Positions 27,213 to 60,534 of a stretch of DNA of 64,000 nt are shown piece by piece; positions within the stretch are counted from its first letter, which is position 1, and each line of letters starts with the position of its first letter. The stretch spans positions 44,613-108,612 of the IMG/VR virus record IMGVR_UViG_3300024303_000028, one strand, 5' to 3'. Made by a program: the position numbers and the translations under genes. The notes under the pieces were generated by a model that saw only the letters and a list, made by a program, of their open reading frames with translations, searched no databases and was not told where the DNA came from. Source of the DNA: a virus (taxonomy: Duplodnaviria; Heunggongvirae; Uroviricota; Caudoviricetes).

Positions 27213-27220
27213 GACTGACG

Positions 27221-27994: not shown

Positions 27995-28005
27995 TTATAT
28001 CCTCA

Positions 28006-43577: not shown

Positions 43578-43604
43578 ATCCTATACCTCCTTGTGTTCAA
43601 TGAG

Positions 43605-43675: not shown

Positions 43676-43689
43676 AAAAAGATCTACCC

Positions 43690-44413: not shown

Positions 44414-44417
44414 TTTC

Positions 44418-44762
44418 TTACTCCTCTTCCAGTAGACTGATCAGAGCATTTGCGTTCTCGCCGATGGTGATCATGTCCTCAAAGTTGGATGTATTCACAA
44501 AGTGAATCAGCTGGTCAATGGTGGTAAAGATGATCTCATCCATTAGTTCTCCATCGACGCAAACCGTAATCATCCTGAGATACGGAAGAACTGCGACCTG
44601 AACCTCAGTCTCTTCTTTGCCATACTCGGTATACGCAATATCCATGCTGGGCTGGAGACTCTGGAAAACATTGTGCTGACCATATTCGCGAATGCAAAAG
44701 GCGTTCATGGCCGTCAGCATACGAACGAGCTGACTCGCGTTCAGTGATGTCTGAGTTGTCAT
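44418..44762 (-). CDS. hypothetical protein
   Basis: 114 aa. Confidence 0.4.
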   Translation of the reverse strand: MTTQTSLNASQLVRMLTAMNAFCIREYGQHNVFQSLQPSMDIAYTEYGKEETEVQVAVLPYLRMITVCVDGELMDEIIFTTIDQLIHFVNTSNFEDMITIGENANALISLLEEE

Positions 44763-44772
44763 ATTACCCTCC

Positions 44773-45036
44773 TCAAAACTTCAGTTTGTTCAAAATACAC
44801 TCTGCTATATTTCTCAGGTGTTCGTGGCGCTGTTCTTCGCTCTGGAAACAACCAGTCCAGCCATCGCCGACTGCAGCCTCATAAATGATCTCACCATCTA
44901 CGTCTGGATAGGAGCAATACAGTGATCCACACCGAAGACGAACATAGCCCACAAGATGGTCGTTAGGGTCATAGACATCGTACTGTTCCGGACATGCGGA
45001 GCATGTACGAACAAACAGCAAATTACCAATTTGCAT
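44773..45036 (-). CDS. hypothetical protein
   Basis: 87 aa. Confidence 0.4.
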   Translation of the reverse strand: MQIGNLLFVRTCSACPEQYDVYDPNDHLVGYVRLRCGSLYCSYPDVDGEIIYEAAVGDGWTGCFQSEEQRHEHLRNIAECILNKLKF

Positions 45037-45136
45037 GTTACGCCTCCTGATTACTTCTTTACAATGTAACGATCACAGCCAACATAAGCACTCACCACAC
45101 GCATGATTGATCCCTTTGGAATCTCTTGGTGCTTTC

Positions 45137-45397
45137 TCACAACTCCTGAAAAATATATCTAGAGTTCATGGTTTCGACGATCAAATCATTCTGATCGCGG
45201 AAAATGTTCTCGACACGAGAAGTTTGGAGATAGCCATCCTTGAGGTTGCCATCTCTATCCTTATGGTACATCAGCCACATGCACCAGCCAATGGTCAGCT
45301 CTTCGCAAAACGAAACGGTGCAACCAATACGGAGTGGATAACGGCCGTCAGTACGGGTTTCCCCGGTCTTGATATGTTGAATATCTTTAATAATCAT
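45137..45397 (-). CDS. hypothetical protein
   Basis: 86 aa. Confidence 0.4.
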   Translation of the reverse strand: MIIKDIQHIKTGETRTDGRYPLRIGCTVSFCEELTIGWCMWLMYHKDRDGNLKDGYLQTSRVENIFRDQNDLIVETMNSRYIFQEL

Positions 45398-45415
45398 GAT
45401 TGAGACTCCTTCTAT

Positions 45416-45661
45416 TTACTCTGACAGAGTTAACACATGCTGTTTTCTGGTGTTCCTCGCGCGAACAATTTCAGATCGCAGGCAACCACATGAACGCGTC
45501 AGTTGCCTACGCAAAGACTGTCCAGAAACAATGCACGTGTTTCCGCACTTACATTTGCAGTACCACATGGCTGCGGTGGAGGTCCCGAACTTTTGGCGTG
45601 GAGCTCGTCCGGACACATATAAGTTGCCGACAGTTCTGCCGGTCATATCAACAACGCGCAT
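45416..45661 (-). CDS. small zinc-ribbon protein
   Basis: CKCKCGNTC...CGC. Confidence 0.4.
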   Translation of the reverse strand: MRVVDMTGRTVGNLYVSGRAPRQKFGTSTAAMWYCKCKCGNTCIVSGQSLRRQLTRSCGCLRSEIVRARNTRKQHVLTLSE

Positions 45662-45850
45662 ACTTCCTCCATATTATCTTATGAATGTTTGAGATAAGCC
45701 GCTATGAGACGATATGGTAACCGTCGTCCCGGGCATGAACCAAGATTTCACCGACAGCCAAACCACGTCGATAGAGACTTCACACATGGCGGAAATCTCG
45801 TATGTCCGTCCCGTCTGATGATTTCTGACAGTATAAATCATCGTCGCACC

Positions 45851-46219
45851 TCACTCGATAGTGAACTTTTTGACTCGAACAGGAGCATCCGGCTTTAGTG
45901 AGCGCATGGTTTCTATCATATGCTGTGTGCCTCTGCTCTCTCCGTCATGGAATGCAACCAGTGCATCTGCATACTTGGCCATCTGGACATTCCTGCGGAA
46001 GCCGGCAAGCTTACCAAATGACGCCCAGTCCGCAGGGAATGTAATAAGGCCATACCCTCGCTCCTTTGCATATCGTTCGCCCAGCGCATCCGCTCCGCGG
46101 GCATGACCGCTTACGATCTCAATCGGCTCTTTGACATTGGCGAGTACCTTATCGAGATAAGACTTGAGCATCTCGTAATCACTGAAGCTCCGACTTCCGG
46201 CAACGATAACACGAAACAT
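45851..46219 (-). CDS. Rossmann-like DprA/SLOG-type small protein (phage-associated DUF)
   Basis: RVIVAGSRSF...IVSGHARGAD glycine-rich nucleotide-binding-like loops. Confidence 0.45.
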   Translation of the reverse strand: MFRVIVAGSRSFSDYEMLKSYLDKVLANVKEPIEIVSGHARGADALGERYAKERGYGLITFPADWASFGKLAGFRRNVQMAKYADALVAFHDGESRGTQHMIETMRSLKPDAPVRVKKFTIE

Positions 46220-46244
46220 GGTTGACCTCCTTCAAATTTTTAAG

Positions 46245-46328
46245 TGGCGCAGGTGGGACTCGAACCCACACGCTGTTCCCAGCACCGGATTTTGAGACCG
46301 GTTCGTCTGCCATTCCGTACACTGCGCC
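46245..46328 (-). tRNA. tRNA-Leu (anticodon CAA), class II
   Basis: Acceptor GGCGCAG/CTGCGCC, loop CTCAAAA, extra arm GCTG-GGAA-CAGC, T-arm GTGGG-TTCGAGT-CCCAC. Confidence 0.65.
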
Positions 46329-46329
46329 G

Positions 46330-46440
46330 AAAGAAAATCCAGCCTGAATAATCGGCTGGATCTGTTTGCGGGTACTCTTTCAGCCCGCGGCTTAGGCGGG
46401 GAACTTCCCCGCTTTATGAGCCGCGCCCGCCCGGCATATG
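46330..46440 (-). ncRNA. hairpin-rich noncoding segment (terminator and/or small RNA candidate)
   Basis: Minus strand: GCGGGGaagttCCCCGC and CCAGCCgattattcaGGCTGG hairpins, the second followed by ATTTTCTTTC. Confidence 0.3.
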
Positions 46441-46462
46441 GTTATAAATCCCTTCTTCATCC

Positions 46463-46550
46463 AAGGCTCAGCCGAGATTCGAACTCGGTTCACCATAAGC
46501 ATCACACCATCGCCAATGCTTAAGACCCAAGGACTCAGAGAATTTGCGTT
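46463..46550 (-). pseudogene. tRNA-like fragment (T-arm plus 3' acceptor remnant, no matching 5' acceptor)
   Basis: CCGAG-TTCGAAT-CTCGG T-arm followed by CTGAGCC, but no complementary 5' strand found. Confidence 0.3.
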
Positions 46551-46755
46551 TCAAGATCTGTAATTTCATATTTTTCTTGGGCATGAAAATACGATCTGCC
46601 TTTGAAGTACGCGCCGCACTTACACTTATAGTGTCGCACAACCTCAATTTCCCAATCATTTTCGTTGTAGTCCGTTTCCAATATCTTGAGATTCAGGGCG
46701 TCATTGCACTGCGGGCATCTCGTCGTGTGTTAGCGCTCCTCAAATTTTATTTTTA

Positions 46756-47061
46756 TTACTTCCAATCCAACATCTGTCCACACTGAGTACAATAAATATC
46801 GTCTTTGGTTACATCTGGATGGTATTTATTTTCTCCGCAAGCACAGCCACAAGTAGGACATCCATATTTCCAACCATCATCAATCAACAACTTATATGTC
46901 AGCTTCTCAGGCTTCTTTGGAATCTGTTTCTCAAGGGCTTCTTTTGCCATCTCTAACCATTCAATATCGTCTGAAGTTAGTTGATATCCTAATGTTTCAT
47001 CGTAATGATAATCAGAGGATAAAACATCATCAATGTATTTAATTGCTTCTTTTACATCCAT
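46756..47061 (-). CDS. small Cys-rich (zinc-binding) protein
   Basis: GCPTCGCACGENKYH...CTQCG. Confidence 0.45.
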   Translation of the reverse strand: MDVKEAIKYIDDVLSSDYHYDETLGYQLTSDDIEWLEMAKEALEKQIPKKPEKLTYKLLIDDGWKYGCPTCGCACGENKYHPDVTKDDIYCTQCGQMLDWK

Positions 47062-47100
47062 AAATTTACCCCTTAAAAGTTTGTTTTTATAATATTTCCG

Positions 47101-47406
47101 TTAGCTCAACGATGGCTTTCCGAAGTCAACCATCTCCAGAGTACTTGTATTTGCATTATTGATAAGCATTGTTAGTTGTTTTTGTAAGATTTTTGCCTCA
47201 TCAATGGTAAGTCTAATAGTTGAACACCACTGCCCTTGATATCTGCGATATGTCTCCAAGCTAATGCGTACTTTGCCATTATCATCTTCTATCCACATTG
47301 TAGTGTTAAGAGACTCGTCTCCTTGTTTGAATCGGAAACTTGTTTGTGTCTTGTCATTACAACGTTTTGCCGCTTCGAGTATGTCCTTTTTTAAATTCGC
47401 TGACAA
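47101..47406 (-). CDS. hypothetical protein
   Basis: 101 aa; TTG start. Confidence 0.4.
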   Translation of the reverse strand: MSANLKKDILEAAKRCNDKTQTSFRFKQGDESLNTTMWIEDDNGKVRISLETYRRYQGQWCSTIRLTIDEAKILQKQLTMLINNANTSTLEMVDFGKPSLS

Positions 47407-47436
47407 ATAATCACCTCATAAAATTCGTATTATAAG

Positions 47437-47508
47437 TGGATCCAGAGGGATTCGAACCCCCGACTCCCTGCTTGCAAAGCAGGTACGCTACCGCTGCGTC
47501 ATGAACCC
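47437..47508 (-). tRNA. tRNA-Ala (anticodon UGC)
   Basis: Anticodon arm CCTGC-TTTGCAA-GCAGG; G3:U70 wobble in the acceptor stem (Ala identity element); T-arm GGGGG-TTCGAAT-CCCTC. Confidence 0.75.
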
Positions 47509-47790
47509 ATGAAGCACAGCAATGGACGAACGTTTTTACCTGTTAAACTAACCGCCAGCTATTGACGGTATCGGGTTTGAACCAATGTGTTCGGACCATT
47601 GCTGTGGAGAGTCGGCTCGTTCAGGGCGACCATTCCTTATTAGATGCAACGCTCTCTATGCATTAACCAAGACTGGAGCGCAAGCTGAGGAGGTCGATCT
47701 CAGTTGCATTCTCCAATGGAACATGGATTTCTGTTCTCTGGGGAAGATCCAACGGGTTGCGCTTACAGCATGGCAGAGGCGTGTTGGATA

Positions 47791-47879
47791 TGGTGCCGAT
47801 GGCGGGGGTCGAACCCGCGGTGTATCGATGTAACGGTTTTTAAGACCGCTGTGTCTCGTCCTGTCTGCACCACATCGGC
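47791..47879 (-). tRNA. tRNA-Leu (anticodon UAA), class II, encoded CCA
   Basis: Acceptor GCCGATG/CATCGGC then ACCA; loop CTTAAAA; 14-nt variable arm; T-arm GCGGG-TTCGACC-CCCGC. Confidence 0.75.
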
Positions 47880-47912
47880 ATGTGTATCATTTCATCCGGA
47901 CATGTTTCAAAT

Positions 47913-48242
47913 TCATTGAAAGATTTCTTTCAAATCCAACGGGATGACAGAATCTTCAATAGTCTCGAGTTCTTCGATGCCGATGATCTTGTACCCATGT
48001 CTTTTGAAATAAGACGCCTGATCCCAGCCAACGCCAAGATCGTATAGGGACTTGCCGATGGTAACATTCTCTCCATACTTTTCATAAGCGAACTTCAGCC
48101 ATTTCTCGTCATACTTATCATATATGCACGTCTCAGGATGTAGTGTCTTTCTAGCAAATAGCATGAAGGTAAGTGCGTTCATGCCACAACGAACTGCAAC
48201 TTTACCTTCCTCAAAGCCGTCTGGTAGAACGAATTGCTTCAT
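47913..48242 (-). CDS. PLDL-motif family small protein (paralog 1)
   Basis: 109 aa, N-terminal VAVRC...LTFMLFA, C-terminal VIPLDLKEIFQ. Confidence 0.55.
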   Translation of the reverse strand: MKQFVLPDGFEEGKVAVRCGMNALTFMLFARKTLHPETCIYDKYDEKWLKFAYEKYGENVTIGKSLYDLGVGWDQASYFKRHGYKIIGIEELETIEDSVIPLDLKEIFQ

Positions 48243-48258
48243 CTGTCCATCTCCCTCT

Positions 48259-48588
48259 TTATGAGTAAATATCGGTTAGATTCAATGGATTTGGGTTGCA
48301 TCGACCGGTGACATGGGCATCGAAGTATTCCTCAAATTCTGTAAATGGGATAACCGGAAAGCCATACTCAGAATAAAAAATTTCCTCACCCGTACTTAAT
48401 CTACCGTCTAGCTTACGAACGCCAAGCCCATGCGCATAACACACCGTCTTGAAGTCATAACGATCCAGCTCGCCGCCGAGCGGATAATGCGAGAAACCAA
48501 ATTCCTCGGCAAGATCACAGAAGAGATCGTTGTCCTTTGCTTCGACCTTAACGGCCATCCGAGTATTCATCAAGTCTCTAAAATTCAT
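48259..48588 (-). CDS. PLDL-motif family small protein (paralog 2)
   Basis: 109 aa, C-terminal NPNPLNLTDIYS. Confidence 0.55.
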   Translation of the reverse strand: MNFRDLMNTRMAVKVEAKDNDLFCDLAEEFGFSHYPLGGELDRYDFKTVCYAHGLGVRKLDGRLSTGEEIFYSEYGFPVIPFTEFEEYFDAHVTGRCNPNPLNLTDIYS

Positions 48589-48606
48589 ACGATCCCTCCA
48601 TTAAAG

Positions 48607-48686
48607 TGCAGGAAGCGGGACTTGAACCCGCACGTGCTGGACACCAGATCCTAAGTCTGGCGCGTCTGCCATTCCGCCATTCCTGC
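48607..48686 (-). tRNA. tRNA-Leu (anticodon UAG), class II
   Basis: Acceptor GCAGGAA/TTCCTGC; arm CCAGA-CTTAGGA-TCTGG; 13-nt variable region; T-arm GCGGG-TTCAAGT-CCCGC. Confidence 0.7.
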
Positions 48687-48687
48687 A

Positions 48688-48778
48688 TGGTAGGAGCTCC
48701 CGGATTCGAACCGGGGTTTACCTTGCTAGGGCTTCCGGTTTATAAGACCGGGGCTCTCACCGGCTGAGCTAAGCTCCC
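48688..48778 (-). tRNA. unusual tRNA: anticodon UAU (Ile-like), class-I-type D-arm but a 19-nt extra arm, encoded CCA
   Basis: Acceptor GGGAGCT/AGCTCCT+ACCA; D-arm GCTC-AGCCGGTGA-GAGC; anticodon arm CCGGT-CTTATAA-ACCGG; T-arm CCCGG-TTCGAAT-CCGGG; 5' end overlaps the HNH gene's last 3 codons. Confidence 0.5.
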
Positions 48779-49332
48779 ATTTGATAAGCTCTTGAATGTG
48801 ATTCCAATCCGTAACTCTTGCACCATTTTCTGACAGCATTATCAGTAACTGAGTACATTCTCCCCACAGCAGTGAAGTTCCCGTGCTGCTCACTAATCAC
48901 CGATCTCAGTTCTTTCTTGGAAGGCTTAGCTGATACACGCTGTCGTCTCACTACGGTGCGCTGCTTTCGCTTTGAATGGCTAGCGCCTTTCATATTTTCT
49001 TTATGGTCAACCCATCGCAAATTACCTAGATGATTGTTTGCACGATTACGATCGATGTGGTCTACCTCTGGAAGTGATAACGGATTGTCAAGAAATGCTT
49101 CTGCAACTAAGCGATGAATGTACTTTTTATATTGTTTTCCATCGACATTCAGACCAATTTGCATATAACCAGTAGTAGTTACATATGATTGCCGAAGATG
49201 CTCGGGTTGCCACACCAATGCGCCGTTATTCTTTATATACCGTCCCTTCGTAAGAACCCTTCCATGAGATGAAATCATGTGAGAAGATTCAAAGCCGACT
49301 ACATCTTTCCAAACCTCCTGTGTATAATCCAT
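48769..49332 (-). CDS. HNH homing endonuclease (NUMOD4-like N-terminus, HNH core, C-terminal HTH)
   Basis: Start at MDYTQEVW after a GGAG RBS. VDHIDRNRANNHLGNLRWVDHKEN HNH motif. C-terminal GRMYSVTDNAVRKWC shared with ORF 12266-12529. Confidence 0.8.
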   Translation of the reverse strand: MDYTQEVWKDVVGFESSHMISSHGRVLTKGRYIKNNGALVWQPEHLRQSYVTTTGYMQIGLNVDGKQYKKYIHRLVAEAFLDNPLSLPEVDHIDRNRANNHLGNLRWVDHKENMKGASHSKRKQRTVVRRQRVSAKPSKKELRSVISEQHGNFTAVGRMYSVTDNAVRKWCKSYGLESHSRAYQMGA

Positions 49333-49697
49333 ACCATTCACTCCAAACATAAATAGAATGGGACAGCAGGTCTGACGGACTGCTGTCCCAAGGCACTGTC
49401 TTACTCCTGTCAGTGGAGCGTAAAGACGATGCCACAATCCGCGCCTCCGCTACCCTTTATGCATGGGGCGTGAGGCACTTGCGCTTTGCCAGTCATCAGC
49501 GTTTGTCAACAGGCAACTGATCAGGCCGCCGCGGCGCCGCTCGAAAACATAACTAGCATGCCACGCCGCTTGTTGTTTTGGGACTTTGAACCCACAGGGA
49601 TTCCGGACTCCCCGGTAGCTTTACTGGCGGACCTTAACGTCGGTCCAAACGGCGGATGGGTTGTGATCGGCTAACCTCTTTTGCTCTAAATGCCGTG

Positions 49698-49770
49698 AGC
49701 TACTGGTGGGACTTGAACCCACGACCTACTGATTACGAGACAGTTGCTCTACCTGCTGAGCTACAGCAGC
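49698..49770 (-). tRNA. tRNA-Thr (anticodon CGU)
   Basis: Acceptor GCTGCTG/CAGTAGC; arm ACTGT-CTCGTAA-TCAGT (U31-U39 mismatch); T-arm GTGGG-TTCAAGT-CCCAC. Confidence 0.65.
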
Positions 49771-50030
49771 ATATGGTACAGACTAAAGTCGCGTACTTCA
49801 GTTGTACCACACGTTTGCAAACACTCTGGCCTGTATACAAGCCATTGTCGGGAGCGAGAGGAATCGAACCTCATCAAACCATCTCTCCCATACCAACCCG
49901 GTTAGGTCCGGGCAGCCCGCGCATCTGCCGTTTGATCGCAGTGAGAACGTACCCGCCATTCGACTTGATATTGATCGTCCTCACTCTGCCTTTGAGTAGT
50001 GGCGCAATTTGCTATCATATCTACTCGTGG

Positions 50031-50114
50031 AGCTGGTAGCCAGATTCGAACTGGCGATGCGGTTTCCCATCCGGCTTACAAAACCGGCGCACTCGGCCGC
50101 TGTGCGATACCAGC
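50031..50114 (-). tRNA. unusual tRNA: anticodon UGU (Thr-like) with a 15-nt extra arm
   Basis: Acceptor GCTGGTA/TACCAGC; arm CCGGT-TTTGTAA-GCCGG; extra arm (G)ATG-GGAAACCG-CAT(C); T-arm GCCAG-TTCGAAT-CTGGC. Confidence 0.5.
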
Positions 50115-50121
50115 ATGATTG

Positions 50122-50451
50122 TTATTCGTTTATATCCCAACATGTGAAAATCAACGATAGATCAAGCGGAGAAACACGTTCAATTTCTCCACAAACATCG
50201 CTTAATGTAAGAATCGGATCTTTGCCAACGCTGTCTCGACTAAGGTGTATTCCGAGACGCCTGTCGCCATGTCGACCTCGCGTCATACCAAGATACATAT
50301 GCTTGAAGGGCTTAATCGAACAATGGCGACTGCATTCCTCACCGTTAATCCAAACAATGTTTTCTCGAGCACACAAATCCATGAACGCGTAGAACTCGTC
50401 CGCCCCATTGATTTCGATCGCATAATTCCCGTGAATAATCCGGTCCATCAT
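50122..50451 (-). CDS. PLDL-motif family small protein (paralog 3)
   Basis: 109 aa, AIEINGADEFYAFMDLCARENIVW, C-terminal VSPLDLSLIFTCW. Confidence 0.55.
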   Translation of the reverse strand: MMDRIIHGNYAIEINGADEFYAFMDLCARENIVWINGEECSRHCSIKPFKHMYLGMTRGRHGDRRLGIHLSRDSVGKDPILTLSDVCGEIERVSPLDLSLIFTCWDINE

Positions 50452-50475
50452 ACCCCTCCATGTTAGAATTAAAAG

Positions 50476-50856
50476 TCATAAACCGGCATCCTCCATGTAT
50501 ATGTCATTTAGATCAATCGGTGCAACACATGTGCTGGGCACATACCCACACGCATCGAGAAGATCCTCATATGTATAAACGACCTGTGGACTCAGAGGTT
50601 TATGAGCATATCGGCCGACACATCCATACGTGGTGAGAGCAATACACGGTTCCCATCCACGTTCTTCATCCTTTCGATATAATTCGTCTATATGATCGGA
50701 TAACAAAGATGCACCGCTTGCAAACACCCATCCAAGCTCATGAAGCATTTCACATACATGGCGAAAGTCGTCTGCGTGGATACGGAATGCAACCGTACCA
50801 TTTTTATTCATTACGAAACCATTTGTGATGTCGACATATTGTCTTATTGCATCCAT
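50476..50856 (-). CDS. PLDL-motif family protein (paralog 4)
   Basis: Start trimmed to MDAIRQY (AAGGTGG RBS) because the track N-terminus (GTGGSNPS) is a translation of tRNA-Ser; C-terminal APIDLNDIYMEDAGL. Confidence 0.5.
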   Translation of the reverse strand: MDAIRQYVDITNGFVMNKNGTVAFRIHADDFRHVCEMLHELGWVFASGASLLSDHIDELYRKDEERGWEPCIALTTYGCVGRYAHKPLSPQVVYTYEDLLDACGYVPSTCVAPIDLNDIYMEDAGL

Positions 50857-50894
50857 ACTTCCGCCCACCTTACATCTTAATGCTGAATACCAAG

Positions 50895-50980
50895 CGCAGC
50901 GAGAGGGATTCGAACCCCCGGTGCCTTTCGACATCACTGGTTTTCAAGACCAGCGCCTTAAACCGCTCGGCCATCGCTGC
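50895..50980 (-). tRNA. tRNA-Ser (anticodon UGA), class II
   Basis: Acceptor GCAGCGA/TCGCTGC; arm CTGGT-CTTGAAA-ACCAG; 17-nt variable arm; T-arm GGGGG-TTCGAAT-CCCTC. Confidence 0.75.
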
Positions 50981-50994
50981 ACAAAACAAATGAA

Positions 50995-51309
50995 TTACTC
51001 ACTATATAACTGAATAAGATCCAGGGGAACTGGATCAGATTGATTTCGGATATCAATCTCAAGCTCTTCAAAACTAATCACATGACACGGATAATACTTA
51101 CGATCACACACCGTATCATACATTAAATGATAGCATCGATTGAAAATGATTGTGCGATCGATTTTCCCTATGCTGAGAAACTTACTATAATCCGTTGGCT
51201 TATCGCCGCTACCCCATACCAGACCGCATTTTTCACATAGATTCATGAACTCTACAAGCTGACTTTTGTTGCATAGAACAGCAACTTCTCCGTCCAAAAA
51301 TCTCTGCAT
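50995..51309 (-). CDS. PLDL-motif family small protein (paralog 5)
   Basis: 104 aa, GEVAVLCNKSQLVEFMNLCEKCGLVW, C-terminal DPVPLDLIQLYSE. Confidence 0.55.
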   Translation of the reverse strand: MQRFLDGEVAVLCNKSQLVEFMNLCEKCGLVWGSGDKPTDYSKFLSIGKIDRTIIFNRCYHLMYDTVCDRKYYPCHVISFEELEIDIRNQSDPVPLDLIQLYSE

Positions 51310-51472
51310 ACATCCTCCTAATTAGAAAACATTCAGGCTCCCTTATGCACCTTTGCCGAAGCGAGGGAGCCACCGTGCTTGGAGTGGGCGCGGCCCGAGC
51401 TCATATATTTGCTCGGATATGAACAGACAATGTGAAATGCTATGCGTACACAAGACTCAGGCGGCAACCTGA

Positions 51473-51548
51473 ATGGCTGGGGATGCAGGACTTGAACCTG
51501 CGCATACGGGAGTCAAAGTCCCGTGCCTTCACCAACTTGGCGAATCCC
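51473..51548 (-). tRNA. tRNA-Gln (anticodon UUG), encoded CCA
   Basis: U1:A72 acceptor TGGGGAT/ATCCCCA then GCCA; arm CGGGA-CTTTGAC-TCCCG; T-arm GCAGG-TTCAAGT-CCTGC. Confidence 0.75.
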
Positions 51549-52050
51549 CAACGGGGGTCGGTTTCACCGGGCGTCCACCCAAGACCAGGGGTCTTGGATT
51601 GCTTTCTCTAACCGACAAGGATGCACTTTCTCTTTAGCCCCGCGCAGAAGGCAGCGTTTCCTCCCGCTTGCACACTTTCGTAGTGCCCACGCTATCAACG
51701 CCAGTTATTCGGCGATCATTCCGGGAGCGACCCGGTCGCACGGGACTCATCCCTCTGGTTACCACCCTGTCAAGGCGTGGATAGTCTAAGCGTTAGGCGA
51801 CCTCCCCGCTTCCCGGAAGGGAGATCTGCCTGCTGGAATCGTACCAGCCCCTCCATGCTTCTTCGATACTTCTCCACATGGATTCGAACCTCGCTTATTC
51901 AGGATCACACACAACCTGATCGCTCCCTCATCTACAGCTCAGAGGAAGCTTTGGCGTAGCACAGAGGCTGTACAGTGAGCCCGCCGGATGTTTATGCTCT
52001 TTACGCCACATTATTGCGAGCAGACTTTTACCCGGTACTGCCATAAGGGG

Positions 52051-52124
52051 CGTCTGAGTGAAGGGATTCGAACCCCCGACCCCCTGACCCCAAATCAGGC
52101 GCGCTACCAAACTGCGCTACACTC
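52051..52124 (-). tRNA. tRNA-Pro (anticodon UGG)
   Basis: C1:G72 acceptor CTGAGTG/CACTCAG; arm CCTGA-TTTGGGG-TCAGG; T-arm GGGGG-TTCGAAT-CCCTT. Confidence 0.75.
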
Positions 52125-52135
52125 AGATATGAGCC

Positions 52136-53120: not shown

Positions 53121-53479
53121 TGTCCGTTCCTTTCAGATCCAAGGTACATTGTAGCTTGCCCGGTAGTTTGAAATCGCGAAACGAATTCTGAGTTATCGCC
53201 TGGAAGCTCCACATGTCTCTTCCGTTCGTATACCAGAGGTTGCATTTGCGGAACATCAGGGACTTGACAACTGGACGCCCAGCGCCTATAGGATTCGGCA
53301 GAGTAGTATGTATGGTTCACGTAGTTCTGGTACTCTTGGACACACGCCTTGGCGAATTCAACCGATTGCGTATGGAACGCAGACTCGACGTGCCGACCGT
53401 AATTAAATGCAGATAGGATAACCAGAAGAAAAATGGCTACGCCGATTGCGGTTAAGAAAACATCCATATGTACCTCCAA
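53117..53479 (-). CDS. membrane-anchored hypothetical protein
   Basis: 120 aa, N-terminal TM (VFLTAIGVAIFLLVILSAF). Confidence 0.45.
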   Translation of the reverse strand: MEVHMDVFLTAIGVAIFLLVILSAFNYGRHVESAFHTQSVEFAKACVQEYQNYVNHTYYSAESYRRWASSCQVPDVPQMQPLVYERKRHVELPGDNSEFVSRFQTTGQATMYLGSERNGQ

Positions 53480-53535
53480 TACTCAATTATGATGTAGTAA
53501 GACTCGTCATCCTGCAAAGCTTGATGAATCTAATA

Positions 53536-53587
53536 AATTCTGAGACCCCTGGGCTAATACCGTATTAGCACTAGGGTCTTAGAATTT
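53536..53587. terminator. long nested palindrome / bidirectional terminator-like hairpin
   Basis: AATTCTGAGACCC ... GGGTCTTAGAATT 13-bp stem (1 mismatch) enclosing inner palindrome GCTAATAccgTATTAGC; T-rich both sides. Confidence 0.5.
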
Positions 53588-54059
53588 ATTTGATTGATCC
53601 AGCGTGCGGCCAAAGGTTATTGAGAATATACGATACATCAGGTCACACCTTGATGTCCTGTTCGCTAAGCGTCAGGTATGCATGACGAGTGATTGTGCTT
53701 CACAATCTGAAAGTGAGGCTCGTGACGTCTTCTCGAGGAGGAAGGCGCCATGGACCAGGTTCCTGAGCTGATCCGGAGCGGAGTTCAACGATCGTCAGTG
53801 TCTGGAGTCTGGGCAGAAGAACGAACGATATATGCGCAGTGGGACGAAGCGTTCGTGTGCTCGACCAGGACTAAGAGGTGAGCGGCCGCTTGAGTCGCAG
53901 CGAGCTGTCTCTCAAGGGCCCGCGGGACGACCGGTACCCGCAGGCGGGCAGGCTCCTCCTCCCTGACAATTCGTTACCACCGGTGAAACCTGATGGTGTT
54001 CGGTTGAAACGAACTATTCATTGTGAAGCGAAGGCTGATATTACATCAGCACGGATTGG

Positions 54060-54314
54060 TTACGGGACTCGGTATACGTCAACACAACCAGGAATGTGGC
54101 CGTCCATGGAGTCGTTGACGAGGTACATTTCATCCTGAAGGTCGAAGGAAAAGTACATCACACCAAGAACAGACTTGGCGTCGATCCTTCGGGTGCCGTC
54201 TTTATTCTCGATAGAGAAGGCGTAGGGCAGCGGGAGAAGCGTCTGAACGAAGTTCATGACTTCCGCCTGATTCGTCAGGCGAATATGAGCACGAGAATGA
54301 GGAACATGGTTCAT
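54060..54314 (-). CDS. HPr-like (PTS phosphocarrier fold) small protein
   Basis: 84 aa; IDAKSVLGVMYFSF resembles the HPr AKS[IL]xxxxxLG core; N-terminal PHSRAHI near the HPr His15 position. Tentative. Confidence 0.4.
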   Translation of the reverse strand: MNHVPHSRAHIRLTNQAEVMNFVQTLLPLPYAFSIENKDGTRRIDAKSVLGVMYFSFDLQDEMYLVNDSMDGHIPGCVDVYRVP

Positions 54315-54387
54315 CTTGAAAACCTCCTTGTGTTAGAGAAGCCTGTTGCTTTCTCTTTATCATATATAAGGAAATTGACACGCCCTC

Positions 54388-54588
54388 TCAAAGTACGGTA
54401 AGTTCCGTCCGTTGAAAGGGGTCAAAAATGCGTAAATTTTGAAAATGATTCGCCGAAGATACCTCCAACACCGACTCTTGGAAGTACTCTTCGTACTCCT
54501 TTCTGGTGGGGAAAAGCATCCAACTGCCATCCGGGAGCCGGCCTCTGTGACCGCTCGGAACATCAAAGCCGCAGGGCGAATCATACAT
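54388..54588 (-). CDS. small ORF translationally coupled to the RT gene
   Basis: 66 aa; its start overlaps the RT stop by 8 nt. Confidence 0.3.
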   Translation of the reverse strand: MYDSPCGFDVPSGHRGRLPDGSWMLFPTRKEYEEYFQESVLEVSSANHFQNLRIFDPFQRTELTVL

Positions 54589-55723
54589 TACCGGACAGCT
54601 CCTTTCTGACCATTTCCATCAGGTCGACATTGAACTTCTCATTGTAGCGGCGAATGATATGTTCAATGTAGTCCTTTTCAACCATCTTGTAATAGGAAAT
54701 CAAACCGGAGAAAACCTGCACATCATGCAGTTCCCAATGCGTACCTTTCTGGACATCACAAATGAAGGAGTGACACATGGCTTTGAAACGATCCACGTTC
54801 TTCCAACCAATAGTGATTTGATTTCGACCGTTGAGCATCAGACCGAGACACCAATTGCTGCCGGAAGAAGAACCGTAGTGAGTCTTCTTACCATTGATAG
54901 AAAAAGGAGCGTTGAATGCCTTCAGGGTTGCAACGACCCTTGCTTCGATCTTTTTATAATTGAAGTCATGGGGACAGCTGATCAGAATATCGTCGGCATA
55001 TCGGGTATACGTCATATGCACTTCATGAAGTCCGTTGGCTAGGCGATGGTCAAGGGGGATCATCATGAGGTTGGTCAACATGGGAGAGATCGGCGTACCC
55101 TGAGGCAACCCACCGTTCAGCGTGCAGAGATTCAAACATTTCCTCAAAGCGACAGGGCCTTCAGGATCTCGCACAACCTCCGTAAAGGGGAAGATCTGTG
55201 TGATCTGATCGAACAAAAAGTTCTCAGTGGTAGACGGAAAAAAACCGGAAAAGTCCAGCTTCAAAAACCATCGTGCACCGGTGGCCTGATGGCGCTTCAG
55301 GACATCAACCGTGCTACGATCTTTGACGTATGCGAAAGCGGATGTATGATGGAGAGCGAAAAACTTCGTCTCAAAGATCGTTTTCAGCTCGTTCAGCGCC
55401 GCTTTCAACTCTTCATTCGGAGCGTCGATCTGGCGCAAACCGCCGGTCTTCTTCGGAATGTGGAAGGTATGGTACAGTTCTTGACGAGGCCGGTTGTACA
55501 ATGCGGCATGACGATCTGCAAAATCTTTCAAAACCGCGGTCAGAAGTGATGGGGATACCTGTGCTCTGAGACGTTCCGGAATTTGAGACACGTGACGGGT
55601 GATCGTTCCGCCACCGGCGACACGGTCAGGCTCATTCAGAAGGGACTCGAATGATCCATAAATCATTTCCTCGAGAGTCAGCTGTCGAGCTTTACGAAGA
55701 ATATGAGTAGTAATGTAAGGCAT
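54581..55723 (-). CDS. retron-type reverse transcriptase
   Basis: Start at the ATG 9 nt after GGAGG. Motifs LKLDFSGFFPST (xDxxxFFxSI-like), LPQGTPISPMLTNL, RYADDILIS (YADD), KKTHYGSSSGSNWCLGLMLN (retron NxxH...VTG-type region, here CLG). No maturase X or endonuclease domain. Confidence 0.75.
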   Translation of the reverse strand: MPYITTHILRKARQLTLEEMIYGSFESLLNEPDRVAGGGTITRHVSQIPERLRAQVSPSLLTAVLKDFADRHAALYNRPRQELYHTFHIPKKTGGLRQIDAPNEELKAALNELKTIFETKFFALHHTSAFAYVKDRSTVDVLKRHQATGARWFLKLDFSGFFPSTTENFLFDQITQIFPFTEVVRDPEGPVALRKCLNLCTLNGGLPQGTPISPMLTNLMMIPLDHRLANGLHEVHMTYTRYADDILISCPHDFNYKKIEARVVATLKAFNAPFSINGKKTHYGSSSGSNWCLGLMLNGRNQITIGWKNVDRFKAMCHSFICDVQKGTHWELHDVQVFSGLISYYKMVEKDYIEHIIRRYNEKFNVDLMEMVRKELSGNV

Positions 55724-56076
55724 GGATGAACCTCCTCTGTAACCTGTGATATCTGTGTGGATGAGGGGCACGCAAGTTAGTTAGTGCTCGTTGCAGTAAC
55801 TTAGCGATTGGTGCCTTAGAGAAAAATTTGTCGATGAGTGCGAACAACATGTTGCTTTGGTAAAGGTTGAAGGAACTGATATCTTGGGGTTGACAATCGA
55901 GTCGAAATCTGTTACCAGAAGCGAGCAGTTGCCTGAAGAGAAGAGGCGCGCGTAATACGTGGATCCTGCAGCTGGCTGCCTCTCTCTCCTCGCCGACGAT
56001 TCGTTACTCCCGGTAAGACCTGAGAGTCCTCCTAAAGATAGAAGGTATGCGTTACAGAATTAACATTTTAGGTGCG
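55724..56076 (-). ncRNA. candidate retron ncRNA (msr/msd) region upstream of the RT
   Basis: 353-nt ORF-poor leader. 8-nt inverted repeat UCUGUAAC (plus 56051-56058) ... GUUACAGA (plus 55736-55743) at its two ends, like a2/a1. Five GTWAC motifs. 10-nt palindrome CAACATGTTG. Confidence 0.3.
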
Positions 56077-56730
56077 TTAGCACATAGTGATGAAACTCAA
56101 GAGGGTTTCATCACTGAATGTAAAGGTCGGTTCGCTAATGACAAAACGACCAGCAGCATCGGGGGCGAAATGGACGTTCGGATCGATCTTGATGATGGGG
56201 TTAAGGGGATGAGGTTTCTGAGGGTCCAGTCTCGTTGTACCGCCCCTGTATGTATATTTGAAATAGGACTTCATACCGCAGAAGGAACGTGTGACGGCGG
56301 ATTGACGAAGAACGTCGGCAATTTTCCACGACTCACCCTCATCCTGTACGGTGTTATGTCTTTCTGGGAACTGCAGAAGTTGCGAAATAGCAGGAAGTGA
56401 AGCGATGCATTGCGCCGCTTGAAGCTTCCCCTGTGTTTTCCTCAAATGCTTGGGGACCGACACCTTGATAACGAACGGCTGGAGCATATTGCGTTCTTCT
56501 TCTGAGAAGAGGCGCAACAAACCATCGTCCTTATTCAGCCACTTGTGAATCCGGCTTGTCAGGTAAAAATTGTCAGGGACGCCATAGTCAGAGAACGAAG
56601 AGTACGCAACGCTGTTTCTGGCAAGAAGAAACTCTTCGCTTACTTTCGTCCACGGGATAGGATCTTTGAAGTATCCATCCTTTCGGCCGAAAAGCACGAT
56701 CGAACCGACAGGGATATCGGCGAAACGCAT
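56077..56730 (-). CDS. hypothetical protein upstream of the retron-like unit
   Basis: 217 aa. Confidence 0.45.
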   Translation of the reverse strand: MRFADIPVGSIVLFGRKDGYFKDPIPWTKVSEEFLLARNSVAYSSFSDYGVPDNFYLTSRIHKWLNKDDGLLRLFSEEERNMLQPFVIKVSVPKHLRKTQGKLQAAQCIASLPAISQLLQFPERHNTVQDEGESWKIADVLRQSAVTRSFCGMKSYFKYTYRGGTTRLDPQKPHPLNPIIKIDPNVHFAPDAAGRFVISEPTFTFSDETLLSFITMC

Positions 56731-56754
56731 AGCCTTTCACTCCTTTCTGCTATA

Positions 56755-57429
56755 TTAAAGGGCGACGAGATCGAACTTGAAAGCGTCGAAGATGATCATC
56801 TTCTTCAGCTCCTCACCGCGGACGAAGTTGATGAAGTTTGCGACACCCATAGCGACGATGTTACGAATGGTGGGGCATACGGAAAGCTCCACGCCACAGG
56901 CGGAAACAGGCGTTTCGGCTTTTGCTTCCTCATGGGTGAAATCCATAGAGGCGATGAAGGATTTGACCATCTGCTGGTCAGACCAGTCGGCAGCATAATG
57001 CTGAGCGTCGGTCAGACGAGTTCGGAAGTCGAAGAAACCCTTGATGAATGAATTACCGACACAGGACTTCGCGATCTTCTGACGGAGCTCGATGGAGTCG
57101 ACACAGAGGAAGACATATCCCGCCAGGTTTTGATTGACATACCCCTTCGTCTGCACCCGCAGATCCTTCTTCACATCAGGGTTGATGCGGGCGAGGTGGT
57201 CGGCTAGTGCTTCAACCTTCGGGCGACCAATATCTTCATGGTCGAAAAGCTGGTTGGAAATGTTCTTGGACTCCACGACATCGAAGTCGTAGAGAGTCAT
57301 CTGAGTGATGCCAAAGCGTGCAAGGTTTTCAGCGACAACGGAACCAACAGAACCGCAACCGATGATGTGTACACGGCCCTTCACGTCGTTCGGGCTGAAC
57401 CAGCCGTGAAACTTGATCTGGTTGAACAT
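56755..57429 (-). CDS. ThiF/MoeB/HesA-family E1-like adenylyltransferase
   Basis: Rossmann loop HIIGCGSVGSVVAENLARFG; DIGRPKVEALADHLARINPDV matches the ThiF/MoeB signature; C-terminal Cys pair SACGVELSVC. Confidence 0.75.
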   Translation of the reverse strand: MFNQIKFHGWFSPNDVKGRVHIIGCGSVGSVVAENLARFGITQMTLYDFDVVESKNISNQLFDHEDIGRPKVEALADHLARINPDVKKDLRVQTKGYVNQNLAGYVFLCVDSIELRQKIAKSCVGNSFIKGFFDFRTRLTDAQHYAADWSDQQMVKSFIASMDFTHEEAKAETPVSACGVELSVCPTIRNIVAMGVANFINFVRGEELKKMIIFDAFKFDLVAL

Positions 57430-57443: not shown

Positions 57444-58304
57444 TTAATACTGATGGTATCCGCCGCCCCAGATGAAATCATCATAATCATCGACATCGTC
57501 GATATCAAAACCCTGATTGTTAACAGGATTCGCGTAAGACGGGCGCGTTTTGGTGGTATCCGCTTTGGTACGAGCTTTCTTAGGCGTCTGGGGCTGCTTC
57601 GTAGACGCCGTCTGAGTTTTGGCAGCAGCACCAGACTTTCCACCGACGGTAGTAGGCGTGGCGGGGGTGTACCTGCGGGTTGCGATCAGAGAATTTGCTT
57701 CCTCAATGAAAGTACGAATCTTGGACTGCGGGAAAATGATGTCCACATCTTCCTTTTCATAGAGGGTGTTGTTGTCTGCATCGTACACCTTGACGATGTA
57801 CTCACGACGCTTATTCAGAATCATGAAGATATAAAAACCTTCATCGTTCAGCTGCGCAACGATCTTGCCCTGATGCTCAAGGTCAGTACCAGACGGGGAA
57901 CACGCCATGTTGACATGACTATGAGCCTGGAACTTCAGCTTCGCGAAGTCCTCATCATTGATCGTCATCAGCCAGGCATCATAAGCCTCCTGGTCGGTTT
58001 CGACAGTTACACCAGTAACCGTCTGAGGATACACCAGAATCTTTTCGACCAGGAAATGATTGGGGGCGACTCTGCTGACCAGACCATGCCAGGCGACTTC
58101 GGTACTGAAGTAGTCGATCAGGGCGAACATTTTTTCACAGGCTTCTTCAGTGAACTCAACCTTCACACGCTCATCGTTGCGAAAGGAAAAGTCCTGACTG
58201 AATGCAAGCTTGCCATCGAGGATCTGCATGCCGGGCAACTTCTTCATGAGTTGCTCAGCAATCTGACCCAAAATCTGAGGAGTGACACGCATAGGCTTAG
58301 GCAT
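57444..58304 (-). CDS. JAMM/JAB (MPN+) metallopeptidase
   Basis: HSHVNMACSPSGTD = HxHx7Sx2D JAMM motif, upstream Glu (EVAWHG); low-complexity Thr/Lys/Pro tail ending FIWGGGYHQY. Confidence 0.75.
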   Translation of the reverse strand: MPKPMRVTPQILGQIAEQLMKKLPGMQILDGKLAFSQDFSFRNDERVKVEFTEEACEKMFALIDYFSTEVAWHGLVSRVAPNHFLVEKILVYPQTVTGVTVETDQEAYDAWLMTINDEDFAKLKFQAHSHVNMACSPSGTDLEHQGKIVAQLNDEGFYIFMILNKRREYIVKVYDADNNTLYEKEDVDIIFPQSKIRTFIEEANSLIATRRYTPATPTTVGGKSGAAAKTQTASTKQPQTPKKARTKADTTKTRPSYANPVNNQGFDIDDVDDYDDFIWGGGYHQY

Positions 58305-59742
58305 TATTCAACTCTCCCTTCAAATACAGCAGAGCGTCCTCCGGACTAACGAACCGCCCATCAAGCAGTTCGATACATTTCTTGCTGGTACAGAACAGTT
58401 CTTCGAGGAAGTGGGTCATCGTCGGGGATTCACCGACATTCAGAGACGCAGCACTGGTCTTACACTGCATCACAGCGCCGATCAGATCACCTGCCTGAAT
58501 TCGATCCTGAATCAGCTCAAGATGCTGACCGAAGCAGGCGAAGTGGTACAGGTGCGGATTCGGCATATAGTCCTTGTATTCCGGAGCGAAGCTATAACTA
58601 CTCACGGTACTGATGGTTCCACGGGTATCGAGGTTATAGTACGCGACGAAACGAACCTTCATAATGGGATCAGGTCCGAAGATTGCTTTCAGAAGCATCA
58701 TGCGATCTTCCTCATCATCGAAGAAATCGCTGACGGATACATCATCCCAATAGAAAGAATCTTCATTGTTGGCGATAGACTCAAACATATCGGGATCCCA
58801 GAATTCGATAGGAGTGGTGACGATGAAGGAAAAACCCTCAGCTTTAGCTTCCACGGGATTAAACCACGTCTGATGATTCAGGAATTCGATGAGTTCTTCA
58901 TCGTTGCCGCCGGCGTTCTTACGGAGGATGTACGCAGACAGATCGAGATTCCGCTGATCCAGCATGAGACACAGTTCGCGGTAGCTCGCCATCAAATCGG
59001 ACATCCTGCGCCGAATGTGGCTGATATCTTCGTTGAGCGCATTGATATGAACGTCAGCGACGCGCTTCATCAAACCGCCGCAAACGCTTTTGATCTGATA
59101 CCCACGGAAGTCGATATTCTTTTCGAGAACTCGAATGGCGTTCAGATACGCTTCCTCGGTTTCGCTGTTAAGGCCGCGGATGACCTCGAACTCTTCGGGG
59201 GTAACCGGCTTACCCTCAAAAAGCGCAGGCAGCAGGGGCGGGATCAGACACTGCAGAGCATGCCATGTACGCGTATCCATCGTGTTGAGGAAGATCAGCA
59301 CAGCACACTTCTCCTTGTTGCAGAAGATGCGACAGTGAGAGACCAGCTTCGTGCTTTCGATATGACTGCTCAGTTTTGCAACATACTCAAAGTTGGAATC
59401 CTTGAACTTGTCGCTCAGATTCTGCATCGTATTGTCAGCCCGTTCTCCAGCCTGGCGAAGATTGACAATCGCAATCTCGTGATCCGGGACATGGCCAATG
59501 ACTCGCGTCATCAGATGTTCGTCGTCAAGGTAATTACCCGAGGATTCGATATTCACGGCAGAATCATTTACCCACATGGAAAACGTCTCTCCTTCGGGCA
59601 AACGGTTGCCGAGAAACGCTCTCAGGGTTGCGGTGAAAGAATAGTCGCCGCGGAAGGTGCGGCCCGAAATACGATCAAAGATCGCGTTACCAGCGGGACT
59701 GGTGAACTGGGTGTCCTGCTGGGTGACGGAATACATAAACAT
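58297..59742 (-). CDS. large protein with C-terminal E2/UBC-like signature (tentative)
   Basis: C-terminal YSFAPEYKDYMPNPHLYHFACFGQ resembles UBC FxPEYPxxPP...HPN...C. N-terminal ~350 aa unassigned. Operon order (this gene, JAB, E1) matches E2-JAB-E1 systems. Confidence 0.4.
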   Translation of the reverse strand: MFMYSVTQQDTQFTSPAGNAIFDRISGRTFRGDYSFTATLRAFLGNRLPEGETFSMWVNDSAVNIESSGNYLDDEHLMTRVIGHVPDHEIAIVNLRQAGERADNTMQNLSDKFKDSNFEYVAKLSSHIESTKLVSHCRIFCNKEKCAVLIFLNTMDTRTWHALQCLIPPLLPALFEGKPVTPEEFEVIRGLNSETEEAYLNAIRVLEKNIDFRGYQIKSVCGGLMKRVADVHINALNEDISHIRRRMSDLMASYRELCLMLDQRNLDLSAYILRKNAGGNDEELIEFLNHQTWFNPVEAKAEGFSFIVTTPIEFWDPDMFESIANNEDSFYWDDVSVSDFFDDEEDRMMLLKAIFGPDPIMKVRFVAYYNLDTRGTISTVSSYSFAPEYKDYMPNPHLYHFACFGQHLELIQDRIQAGDLIGAVMQCKTSAASLNVGESPTMTHFLEELFCTSKKCIELLDGRFVSPEDALLYLKGELNNA

Positions 59743-59835: not shown

Positions 59836-60534
59836 TCAGGCTTCGGTGATAGCCGCAGCGACGGCAGCCTTCTCAGCCTTGACCTCCGCCAGAGCGGCGG
59901 CGAAACCAGCCTCGACCTTGCGCAGCTGCAGGATGGCGACGCCGACCTCTTCCTGAACCCACGCCTTCATATCGACGGTGCCCTCGGGAGCAGTCAGGGT
60001 CACAAGGGCATTGCCCTCAGCGGTAGTGACGCGGGAGAACATCACACCGTTCTGACCGACACAACCGCCCTTATCGCCGTCAGTCAGGATGCTGAAAACC
60101 GCATGCTTTTCGGCACCGGAACCTTCCATCAGGGACAGGACGGCAGGGCGATACTTCTTCAGGAGCTTGATATCCTCGAGCTTCTGAGAGGAAATGATGT
60201 GGGCGATGTTGCCGATGATCTGGATCTTGGCGACGGGAGTGTCGTTGGCGGCCACAACTTCGGCCTCGCAATCGGAGGCGTTGTCGGCCTTGGTGGTCAC
60301 CATGACGAAGCAGCGAGGACTGGTGATGCCCAGGTCATCCAGGGACTTATCGATCGCGCCGGTGGGCAGGGAGGAACCGTCGATGGAGACGACGCCGGTG
60401 GCGTAGTCCATGCCGGCCTCATTGAAGATCTCACGCACGGTAGCGCCGGAGGAAACGTTGACGGTCTTGCTGGTGACGTTGTTGCGGACGGTAACGGAAA
60501 CGATCTGAGACATATTTATTCTCCTTTTATTCAA
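59836..60534 (-). CDS. hypothetical protein with N-terminal beta-grasp-like (ubiquitin-like?) region
   Basis: First ~80 aa alternate beta/alpha like a beta-grasp fold, but no C-terminal Gly-Gly; Ala-rich helical C-terminus. Assignment weak. Confidence 0.3.
   Translation of the reverse strand: MNKRRINMSQIVSVTVRNNVTSKTVNVSSGATVREIFNEAGMDYATGVVSIDGSSLPTGAIDKSLDDLGITSPRCFVMVTTKADNASDCEAEVVAANDTPVAKIQIIGNIAHIISSQKLEDIKLLKKYRPAVLSLMEGSGAEKHAVFSILTDGDKGGCVGQNGVMFSRVTTAEGNALVTLTAPEGTVDMKAWVQEEVGVAILQLRKVEAGFAAALAEVKAEKAAVAAAITEA

Follow-up and report, generated by a model that had tools for sequence, protein, structure and literature searches.

What does a retron-type reverse transcriptase (RT) do for a phage that carries it between its replication genes and its tRNA genes, and which of the neighbouring genes are its real partners? 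The question is raised by a locus in a 64,000-nt stretch of a Caudoviricetes genome (positions 44,613 to 108,612 of IMG/VR record IMGVR_UViG_3300024303_000028), the whole of which we call the window. A first-pass annotation of this stretch had proposed a retron or defence cassette made up of the RT, an msr/msd-like leader and an HPr-like effector encoded downstream. The answer that we lean towards, with a confidence only a little above even, is a retron belonging to a phage lineage, in which one RT and several non-coding RNAs (ncRNAs) give rise to several multicopy single-stranded DNAs (msDNAs) that act in phage-host or phage-phage conflict. Judged by what recurs across relatives, the conserved partners of the RT are extra ncRNA units and an upstream operon for E1-like and JAB-like proteins, and not p66 and p84, the two small open reading frames (ORFs) that follow the RT gene. 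On this reading the cassette is a vertically inherited module rather than a classical toxin/antitoxin retron.

A retron-clade enzyme and its leader RNA

Profile comparisons place the RT in the retron clade, with its YADD active site intact. Pfam RVT_1 is the sole domain match, and maturase and endonuclease domains are absent; the top 25 PADLOC matches are to retron RT models only, led by RT_II-A (4e-51, 172 bits) and followed by I-A (142 bits), XII, III-A and others; among the NCBIfam models retron_St85_RT (1.5e-55) stands ahead of group II (6e-23) and Drt2 (2e-15); and the best matches in the PDB are the RTs of retrons Ec78, Ec83, Ec67 and Ec86. YADD, LPQGTPISP and DFSGFFPS are all found, so that the palm motifs are intact, and the protein carries an N-terminal extension of ~60-75 aa that is specific to its family. 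Since the best matches are all retron RTs and the palm motifs and YADD are intact, the first description of the enzyme (380 aa, retron-type, YADD, without maturase or endonuclease domains) was correct, and the positions given for its gene and for the 66-aa and 84-aa ORFs hold as well. In classification against the sets of profile hidden Markov models, the retron models win over those of group II introns, and a test for the template and variable repeats of a diversity-generating retroelement (DGR) failed too.

Two more specific identities were tried and rejected. A group II intron RT was dismissed because RVT_1 is matched alone, without X or En domains, and because Rfam found no intron RNA in 53400-56200 at E ≤ 10. 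Membership of retron type II-A (the St85 family) failed, the score on retron_St85_RT being 188.5 bits under a curated cut-off of 235, and there is no NDT-like gene. Among the related loci, to which we gave L numbers, the RT itself varies in length: in-frame insertions of ~70-75 aa lie after residue ~96 in L131, L136, L140 and L141 and near residue ~270 in L153 and L157, and the RT of L166 appears frameshifted. Introns, considered for the overlong RT matches in some loci from metagenome-assembled genomes (MAGs), were rejected in favour of such in-frame insertions.

Is the leader then a retron RNA? On the evidence of its relatives, it is predicted to be one, with a1/a2-type arms, much as had been proposed, and also with a priming G and msr hairpins. 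The region is indeed poor in ORFs (none of at least 80 aa in its 353 nt), and an ORF-free gap of 300-400 nt precedes the RT in nearly every related locus, where a unit orthologous to that of the window (unit 1) sits upstream of the RT almost without exception. The 8-nt inverted repeat pointed out earlier, TCTGTAAC (56051-56058) against GTTACAGA (55736-55743), would be weak evidence by itself; the comparison of relatives goes far beyond chance, and we therefore accept it. When the longest inverted repeat was taken between the last 75 nt of each upstream region and the sequence further upstream, a perfect repeat of at least 8 nt (8-12 nt), with a span of 230-470 nt, was found in 65 of 76 distinct regions, in 38 arm sequences. 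The arm pairs differ yet remain complementary, for example CTGTAAC/GTTACAG, CTGCAAT/ATTGCAG, GTTTGTGTT/AACACAAAC and TTAGTTCAAA/TTTGAACTAA, and the arms can thus be said to covary. With no constraint imposed, a G follows the 5' arm in 58 of these 65 loci, and a G precedes the 3' arm in 57. Across the 183 distinct units of all kinds, own arms of at least 7 nt occur in 144 and of at least 8 nt in 135, against controls at the latter length of 0/183 for shuffled sequence, 0/183 for the wrong side and 3/183 for direct copies.

The two hairpins that follow the 5' arm tell the same story. In an alignment of 40 sequences 82% of their cells are paired, against 39-56% in slid controls; cells changed on both sides number 168, against 53 in shuffles, none of 500 shuffles was as good, and 14 of the 15 pairs change both sides. 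Taken together, the covariation of the repeat, the G and the hairpins extends over about 150 related loci. After the hairpins comes a conserved single-stranded GUAACRAAUUGUC. Unit 1 scores 68 bits (E=2e-14) on R1, our covariance model, and its predicted minimum-free-energy fold closes on the terminal arms. The richness in GTWAC that had caught the eye earlier is real, and the five copies that we count by eye in the leader include the two repeat arms and the conserved GUAAC after hairpin 2. At E ≤ 10 Rfam has no msr family for the region and returned only chance microRNA matches on a hairpin at 53519-53603, and a promoter and terminator scan of 53300-57000 gave nothing above shuffled expectation.

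Several RNA units and an upstream operon

The locus has more than one such RNA, and the second, just below the range covered by the first-pass annotation, had been missed. A covariance model of the 5' module finds exactly two copies in the window, namely unit 1 and a second unit that lies downstream of the 84-aa ORF and whose fold also closes on its arms. Across relatives we found 206 units in 86 loci and 131 more in 80 further MAG loci, all of them on the strand of the RT (337/337), with a median length of ~295 nt. In the usual layout unit A ends 10-35 nt before the RT, and units B and C follow in tandem from 5-35 nt past the RT stop; nhmmer most often counts three units in a locus, L019 and L039 being examples of relatives with three. 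The largest arrays have nine units (L037, 4510-9791, E<0.01) and seven within ~2 kb (L165, 395-2423, at a spacing of ~290-370 nt), and units flank the RT even where it has diverged to 34-41% identity. As far as these searches reach, the units appear only beside this RT lineage and always co-oriented with it.

In the window, ~580 nt of non-coding sequence follow the 84-aa ORF before a 120-aa ORF that starts at 53479. Within this interval, ~95 nt 3' of unit 2 and before the next gene, lies the hairpin 53519-53603, with arms of 42 nt that are 83% complementary around a 1-nt loop. It is the cause of the chance microRNA matches, and might act as a terminator or mark a processing site.

The unit interiors, of ~200 nt each, behave quite differently from the ends. 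They contain A 31, C 29, G 20 and T 20% (the background of the loci being 29/21/25/25), and because they are enriched in C and A their complementary strand is poor in stop codons. Ten phages with ~95% identity across the locus share 64-81% in the interiors, against 95-100% in the 5' modules and 3' ends; between 45 and 76% of interior columns in ncRNA-A are variable (8-13% in the RT gene), and transversions make up about half of the changes there, against ~8% in the RT gene. Adenine-specific mutagenesis of the interiors was not seen. Replacement of segments, an unusual input of mutations or diversifying selection would each fit such a pattern. A conserved internal hairpin was found in a single orthologous group only, and is small.

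Which genes accompany the units? Directly upstream of the RT, on the same strand and tightly spaced, lies an operon of four genes, for p232, p481, a JAB/JAMM metallopeptidase-like protein and a ThiF/MoeB-type E1-like adenylyltransferase. The order p232-p481-JAB-ThiF-ncRNA-RT is found in ~95% of loci with enough flanking sequence and is kept down to 32-37% RT identity. Searching from the other end gives the same answer: ThiF relatives occur on 434 viral contigs, and among the best 80 viral loci the RT lies downstream in all 79 that could be tested, the eightieth ending at a contig edge. The ThiF protein also matches the NCBIfam '6A-MBL cap2_3' model. For p481 there was no PHROG, NCBIfam or PADLOC match, a Pfam match at E=0.22, an unconvincing PDB profile search and weak fold matches only; it is probably E2/RWD-like. 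The N-terminal domain of p232 may be a ubiquitin-like beta-grasp, to judge from its weak Pfam match, and neither protein matched a defence model. We tried and dropped the idea that the E1/E2 pair acts on the RT itself, after the model of the CD-NTase in type II CBASS (cyclic-oligonucleotide-based anti-phage signalling system): the RT C-termini read ...DL[RSKG] and are not uniformly Gly.

The two small ORFs downstream are of another kind. The 84-aa protein had been called HPr-like, and profiles from both Pfam and the PDB agree: all 13 members of its family match Pfam PTS-HPr (best 5.6e-5), the window protein alone staying below the gathering score of 23 bits with 15.8, and the family profile finds HPr and Crh chains only in the PDB, nearly full length and with Crh best at 5.7e-4. 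Because the Ser46 motif is kept (AKSVLGVMY; AKS(V/I)(L/M)GVM in the family) and His15 is absent, p84 resembles Crh; the call rests on profiles, since a single-sequence structure model was unusable (pLDDT 48). In our view p84 is probably a Crh-like passenger, a gene for host carbon-catabolite control that is separate from the retron, and it may let the phage interfere with that control in its Firmicute host. For this window the record is thus corrected.

The lineage to which all this belongs is a large one. At E ≤ 1e-30 the RT falls into 439 clusters at 50% identity, and at least 120 relatives share ~50% identity with it (E<1e-117); it occurs on 308 IMG/VR viral contigs and on 81 contigs of species-representative genomes, almost all of them MAGs of gut Clostridia; the viral and MAG contigs come from the guts of humans, ruminants, rabbits, chickens and termites. 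One locus, L145, is on an isolate contig, 'Clostridiales Family XIII bacterium PM5-7', which is a lead to a culturable host although the RT there looks partial. The window carries phage genes for an endolysin, an integrase, DNA polymerase, primase, DnaB helicase and NrdD. The cassette sits within a 52-kb co-directional block, between replication genes (polymerase, primase, helicase and NrdD, on the same strand) and tRNA genes, and co-diverges with the lineage (RT 32-69%, ThiF 41-80% identity). One relative is already in GenBank: L001 (MT835544.1, RT at 27178-28380), an unannotated human-gut phage scaffold from Mexico, has an RT that is 40% identical and the same p481-JAB-ThiF-ncRNA-RT order.

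Other features of these phages deserve a record. Downstream of the retron and on its strand are eleven tRNA genes (43604-52126, minus strand), among them Ile-UAU and two for Thr; in many relatives a tRNA array comes directly after the ncRNA array, a tRNA-Leu(UAA) often lies upstream of the p481 gene, and a transfer-messenger RNA gene is predicted within the tRNA array of one related phage (L011, 9211-9629). A tyrosine-integrase-like gene (9591-10838, plus strand; PHROG 1, 5e-72) and the endolysin gene (8346-9419, plus strand) both adjoin a DGR at 1-6015 on the plus strand, and the phage, of ~110 kb to judge by a 99%-identical relative, is probably temperate. In the DGR, the ORF at 3-3377 ends in the variable repeat (3241-3368), and the template repeat lies at 4303-4430; all 18 of the 18 differences between the repeats are at template adenines, the ORF at 3233-4276 has a weak Avd-like match, and an Rfam RT-2 RNA (4474-4715, 47.5 bits) separates the template repeat from the DGR RT (4726-6015). 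Since it has this DGR as well as the retron, the phage carries two different retroelements.

Table 1. Features of the cassette and its flanks, in window coordinates
Feature	Position	Strand	Description
p232	59836-60534	(-)	232 aa; N-terminal ~70 aa with weak Pfam SAMP2 match, E=0.027; position conserved
p481	58297-59742	(-)	481 aa; two alpha/beta domains around a long helix; NPH...C403 motif conserved
JAB/JAMM metallopeptidase-like	57444-58304	(-)	286 aa; full HxHx7SxxD motif HSHVNMACSPSGTD; weak PADLOC JAB matches, 5e-4
ThiF/MoeB-type E1-like adenylyltransferase	56755-57429	(-)	224 aa; GCGSVGS; Pfam ThiF 5e-27; PADLOC E1-E2 models 8.5e-20
Variable gene	56077-56730	(-)	217 aa, between ThiF and unit 1; in some relatives only; DUF6273 at E=0.13 only
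Gap between upstream gene and RT	55724-56076	(-)	Only a 52-aa ORF, overlapping the RT start
ncRNA unit 1, msr/msd-like	55736-56058	(-)	323 nt from 5' arm to 3' arm; ends 12 nt before the RT start codon
Unit 1 5' arm (a1-type) UCUGUAAC	56051-56058	(-)	Presumed branching G at 56050
Unit 1 conserved 5' module	55995-56045	(-)	Hairpin 1 56028-56045; hairpin 2 56007-56026; single-stranded GUAACGAAUCGUC 55995-56007
Unit 1 3' arm (a2-type) GUUACAGA	55736-55743	(-)	Presumed reverse-transcription start just 5' of the arm
RT	54581-55723	(-)	380 aa from ATG; YADD active site; retron clade
p66, 66-aa ORF	54388-54588	(-)	ATG overlaps the RT stop (ATGTATGA); sporadic passenger
p84, 84-aa Crh/HPr-like	54060-54314	(-)	Own AAGGAGG ribosome-binding site; probable sporadic passenger
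ncRNA unit 2	53697-54029	(-)	333 nt; R1 covariance 45 bits, E=6e-9 (match 53939-54029); 38-nt repeat
Unit 2 arms, 10 nt	GCUUCACAAU 54020-54029; AUUGUGAAGC 53697-53706	(-)	G at 54019; both hairpins present; GUAACGAAUUGUC

What the module might do

How might such a system work? By analogy with retron biochemistry, the RT would bind each unit at its conserved 5' module, with the terminal stem presenting the 2'-OH of the G as a primer, and would copy the variable interior from the base, usually G, that lies just 5' of the 3' arm. The branched msDNAs made in this way would differ from one another and have little secondary structure, with two of them here and at least three in most relatives. The complexes of msDNA and RT would then most likely act as decoys or sensors in phage-host or phage-phage conflict, which is the weakest step, and they would likely work with, or under the control of, the E1/JAB/E2-like operon. 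It is from the fixed inheritance across the lineage, the lack of a known toxin and the fast-evolving templates that we infer, weakly, a function that would serve the phage in such conflict. A bolder version, which we offer as a doubtful one, is that of a multiplexed natural retron whose conserved handles and fast-evolving templates would combine a repertoire of single-stranded DNA with phage-encoded ubiquitin-like conjugation, and so supply a whole lineage of large phages of gut Clostridia with programmable decoys, guides or sensors, in contrast to the toxin-antitoxin defence of bacteria.

A number of observations weigh against the retron that we favour. Sequence and alignment show the RT signatures to be variants, with DVLKRH (family consensus DAxKRH) in place of NAxxH and CLG (N-W-[NC]-L-G) in place of VTG, and no known retron effector was found in the cassette with PADLOC, Pfam or NCBIfam. 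The putative full-length cDNAs, folded as DNA, fold no better than shuffles (z -0.75 and +0.83), so that the long msd hairpin typical of retrons is absent. Searches with the interiors found no target or copy in the window, in 2.6 Mb of related loci or, by blastn with both units, in GenBank phages; the 2.6 Mb yielded only units cut short by contig ends and a single 28-nt match that we take as chance, and megablast of the region against GenBank phages gave no match. Four loci on a different backbone (L103, L107, L110 and L113) have the RT and its ncRNAs without the operon, and because of them the RT with its units has to be regarded as the tightest module and the E1/JAB link as strong and not absolute; that link could be plain synteny within one phage lineage. 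In addition, since the window has an integrase, expression in a lysogen with a role in defence is still conceivable, and everything beyond the RNA structure, the putative msDNAs included, is argued by analogy.

The main rival is accordingly a defence system that protects the lysogen, with the ubiquitin-like operon as its effector. The msDNAs of a prophage-borne anti-phage retron would here guard a Bil-like or Cap2/Cap3-like E1-E2-JAB module, and release or license it upon attack by a second phage, the outcome being superinfection exclusion or abortive infection. There is a good deal to be said for this: the integrase makes a temperate phage probable, MAG contigs of 200-430 kb carry relatives, and according to published abstracts the retrons known so far serve in defence, with an msDNA that senses proteins of phages; the ThiF protein matches Cap2-type E1-E2 models as well as '6A-MBL cap2_3', the JAMM motif is intact, and RT and ThiF co-occur in both search directions. 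Prophage defence cargo is usually variable and patchy, however, whereas this block co-diverges with the whole lineage, keeps its place amid replication and tRNA genes and is co-directional with the 52-kb replication block; p481 and p232 match no defence model, their E2 and ubiquitin-like assignments are weak, and the four loci without the operon keep the RT and its units. We regard this explanation as unlikely, if the most serious of those that compete with the phage-serving retron.

Other alternatives concern the RNAs or the effector. The ~300-nt units might be structured RNAs that are not templates at all, with roles in regulation or processing of the tRNA region or as sponges, the RT acting elsewhere or only binding them; the missing msd hairpin, the poorly conserved interiors and the position of the units at the head of tRNA arrays would suit such RNAs, but a terminal stem with an adjacent G is the priming geometry of retrons, kept here across at least 38 arm sequences, the units lie only beside the RT and on its strand even in the four loci of different backbone, and no further copy was found in the 64-kb window, all of which makes the idea improbable. 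Alternatively, the units might be templates of the kind used by defence-associated RTs (DRTs), giving, for instance, cDNA that is concatemeric or forms genes, as with DRT2, in place of branched msDNA. Templates that are long and unstructured, with C/A-enriched interiors and a stop-poor complementary strand, are what such a system might have; the RT is nevertheless nearer to retron_St85_RT than to Drt2, the units have the a1/a2-G architecture of retrons, and a conserved protein encoded in the interiors is unlikely because these are hypervariable, with indels among near-identical phages. We consider it very improbable. Hardly credible, finally, is the tripartite retron of the first-pass annotation, with p66 and/or p84 as its effector. 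Both ORFs do separate the RT from unit 2 and share their strand, the start of p66 overlaps the RT stop, and p84 appears to be a genuine member of the HPr/Crh family; yet tblastn finds p84 in only 5 and p66 in only 9 of 167 RT-anchored loci, the pair occupies the slot held by unit B in relatives, most of which have a unit starting 5-35 nt past the RT stop, neither matches a defence model, and a Crh-like protein is explained more simply as a passenger for host metabolism. The distribution of the genes essentially excludes an HPr effector, and what survives of the new subtype suggested earlier is a phage-borne retron that fits no described type.

If msDNAs are made by the phage-lineage retron that we prefer, they would represent a retron function that serves the virus, and would link reverse transcription with ubiquitin-like conjugation, two immune-type modules.

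Comparison with known systems

Retrons are tripartite bacterial defence systems that consist of an RT, an ncRNA and a toxic effector, and 13 types have been described; the descriptions known to us have a single ncRNA per RT. This lineage departs from that picture in having several complete ncRNAs, no known effector and a fixed place as a phage module beside an E1/JAB operon. Its closest counterparts are retrons II-A (St85/Sen2, Ec86/Eco1) and I-A (Ec78, Ec83), with which it shares RT similarity, an ncRNA just upstream of the RT, a terminal repeat, the G and msr-like hairpins. Unlike them, it lacks NDT, PtuAB or any other known effector; it has 2-9 units per RT, of ~300 nt each and without a long msd hairpin; its RT falls below the St85 cut-off, with variant motifs and 60-75 extra N-terminal aa; and, whereas those retrons are patchy defence cargo, it is inherited across a whole phage lineage. 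Most structural features of a retron are present; missing are a canonical msd hairpin, the RT signatures in their canonical form and an effector of a described kind, and on sequence grounds the system appears to fit none of the 13 types.

The other comparisons are more partial. With Crh and HPr, p84 shares nearly full-length profile matches and the motif of the Ser46 region, and differs in scoring under the gathering threshold alone, in lacking His15 and in being phage-encoded. DGRs resemble the module in pairing a phage-borne RT with an adjacent non-coding template, but the RT at 54581-55723 is placed in the retron clade, no target gene with a variable-repeat copy of the units was found in the window, and the variation of the interiors is not adenine-specific. 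The likeness to Bil and to type II CBASS (Cap2/Cap3) lies in a ThiF E1 that matches Cap2-type models, a JAMM-type JAB, E2/RWD-like fold matches and a possible beta-grasp domain; here, in contrast, the E1 is short and stand-alone (224 aa), the E2 and ubiquitin-like calls are weak, and there is no CD-NTase. Bil and CBASS have not been described as phage-encoded and retron-coupled, and the operon in the window is both.

In the searchable literature we found no description of phage-lineage retrons, of natural arrays of several ncRNAs or of RTs linked to E1/JAB genes, and the accessible part of a 2026 survey that classifies retrons against the 13 types describes no such system; a preprint of September 2026 that names an 'ncRNA array' together with an RT (10.64898/2026.09.22.753630) leaves priority uncertain. 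The nearest design is an artificial one. Engineered 'multitrons' are synthetic retron arrays built on Eco1 (PMC10370050), and like the phage loci they pair one RT with an array of ncRNAs or msds, in which the templates differ. The difference is that multitrons are synthetic, whereas the arrays of this lineage are natural and their units differ in both arms and interiors. If msDNAs are made, the long, unstructured templates of ~200 nt and the mutually compatible handles would offer natural designs for multi-template retron editors.

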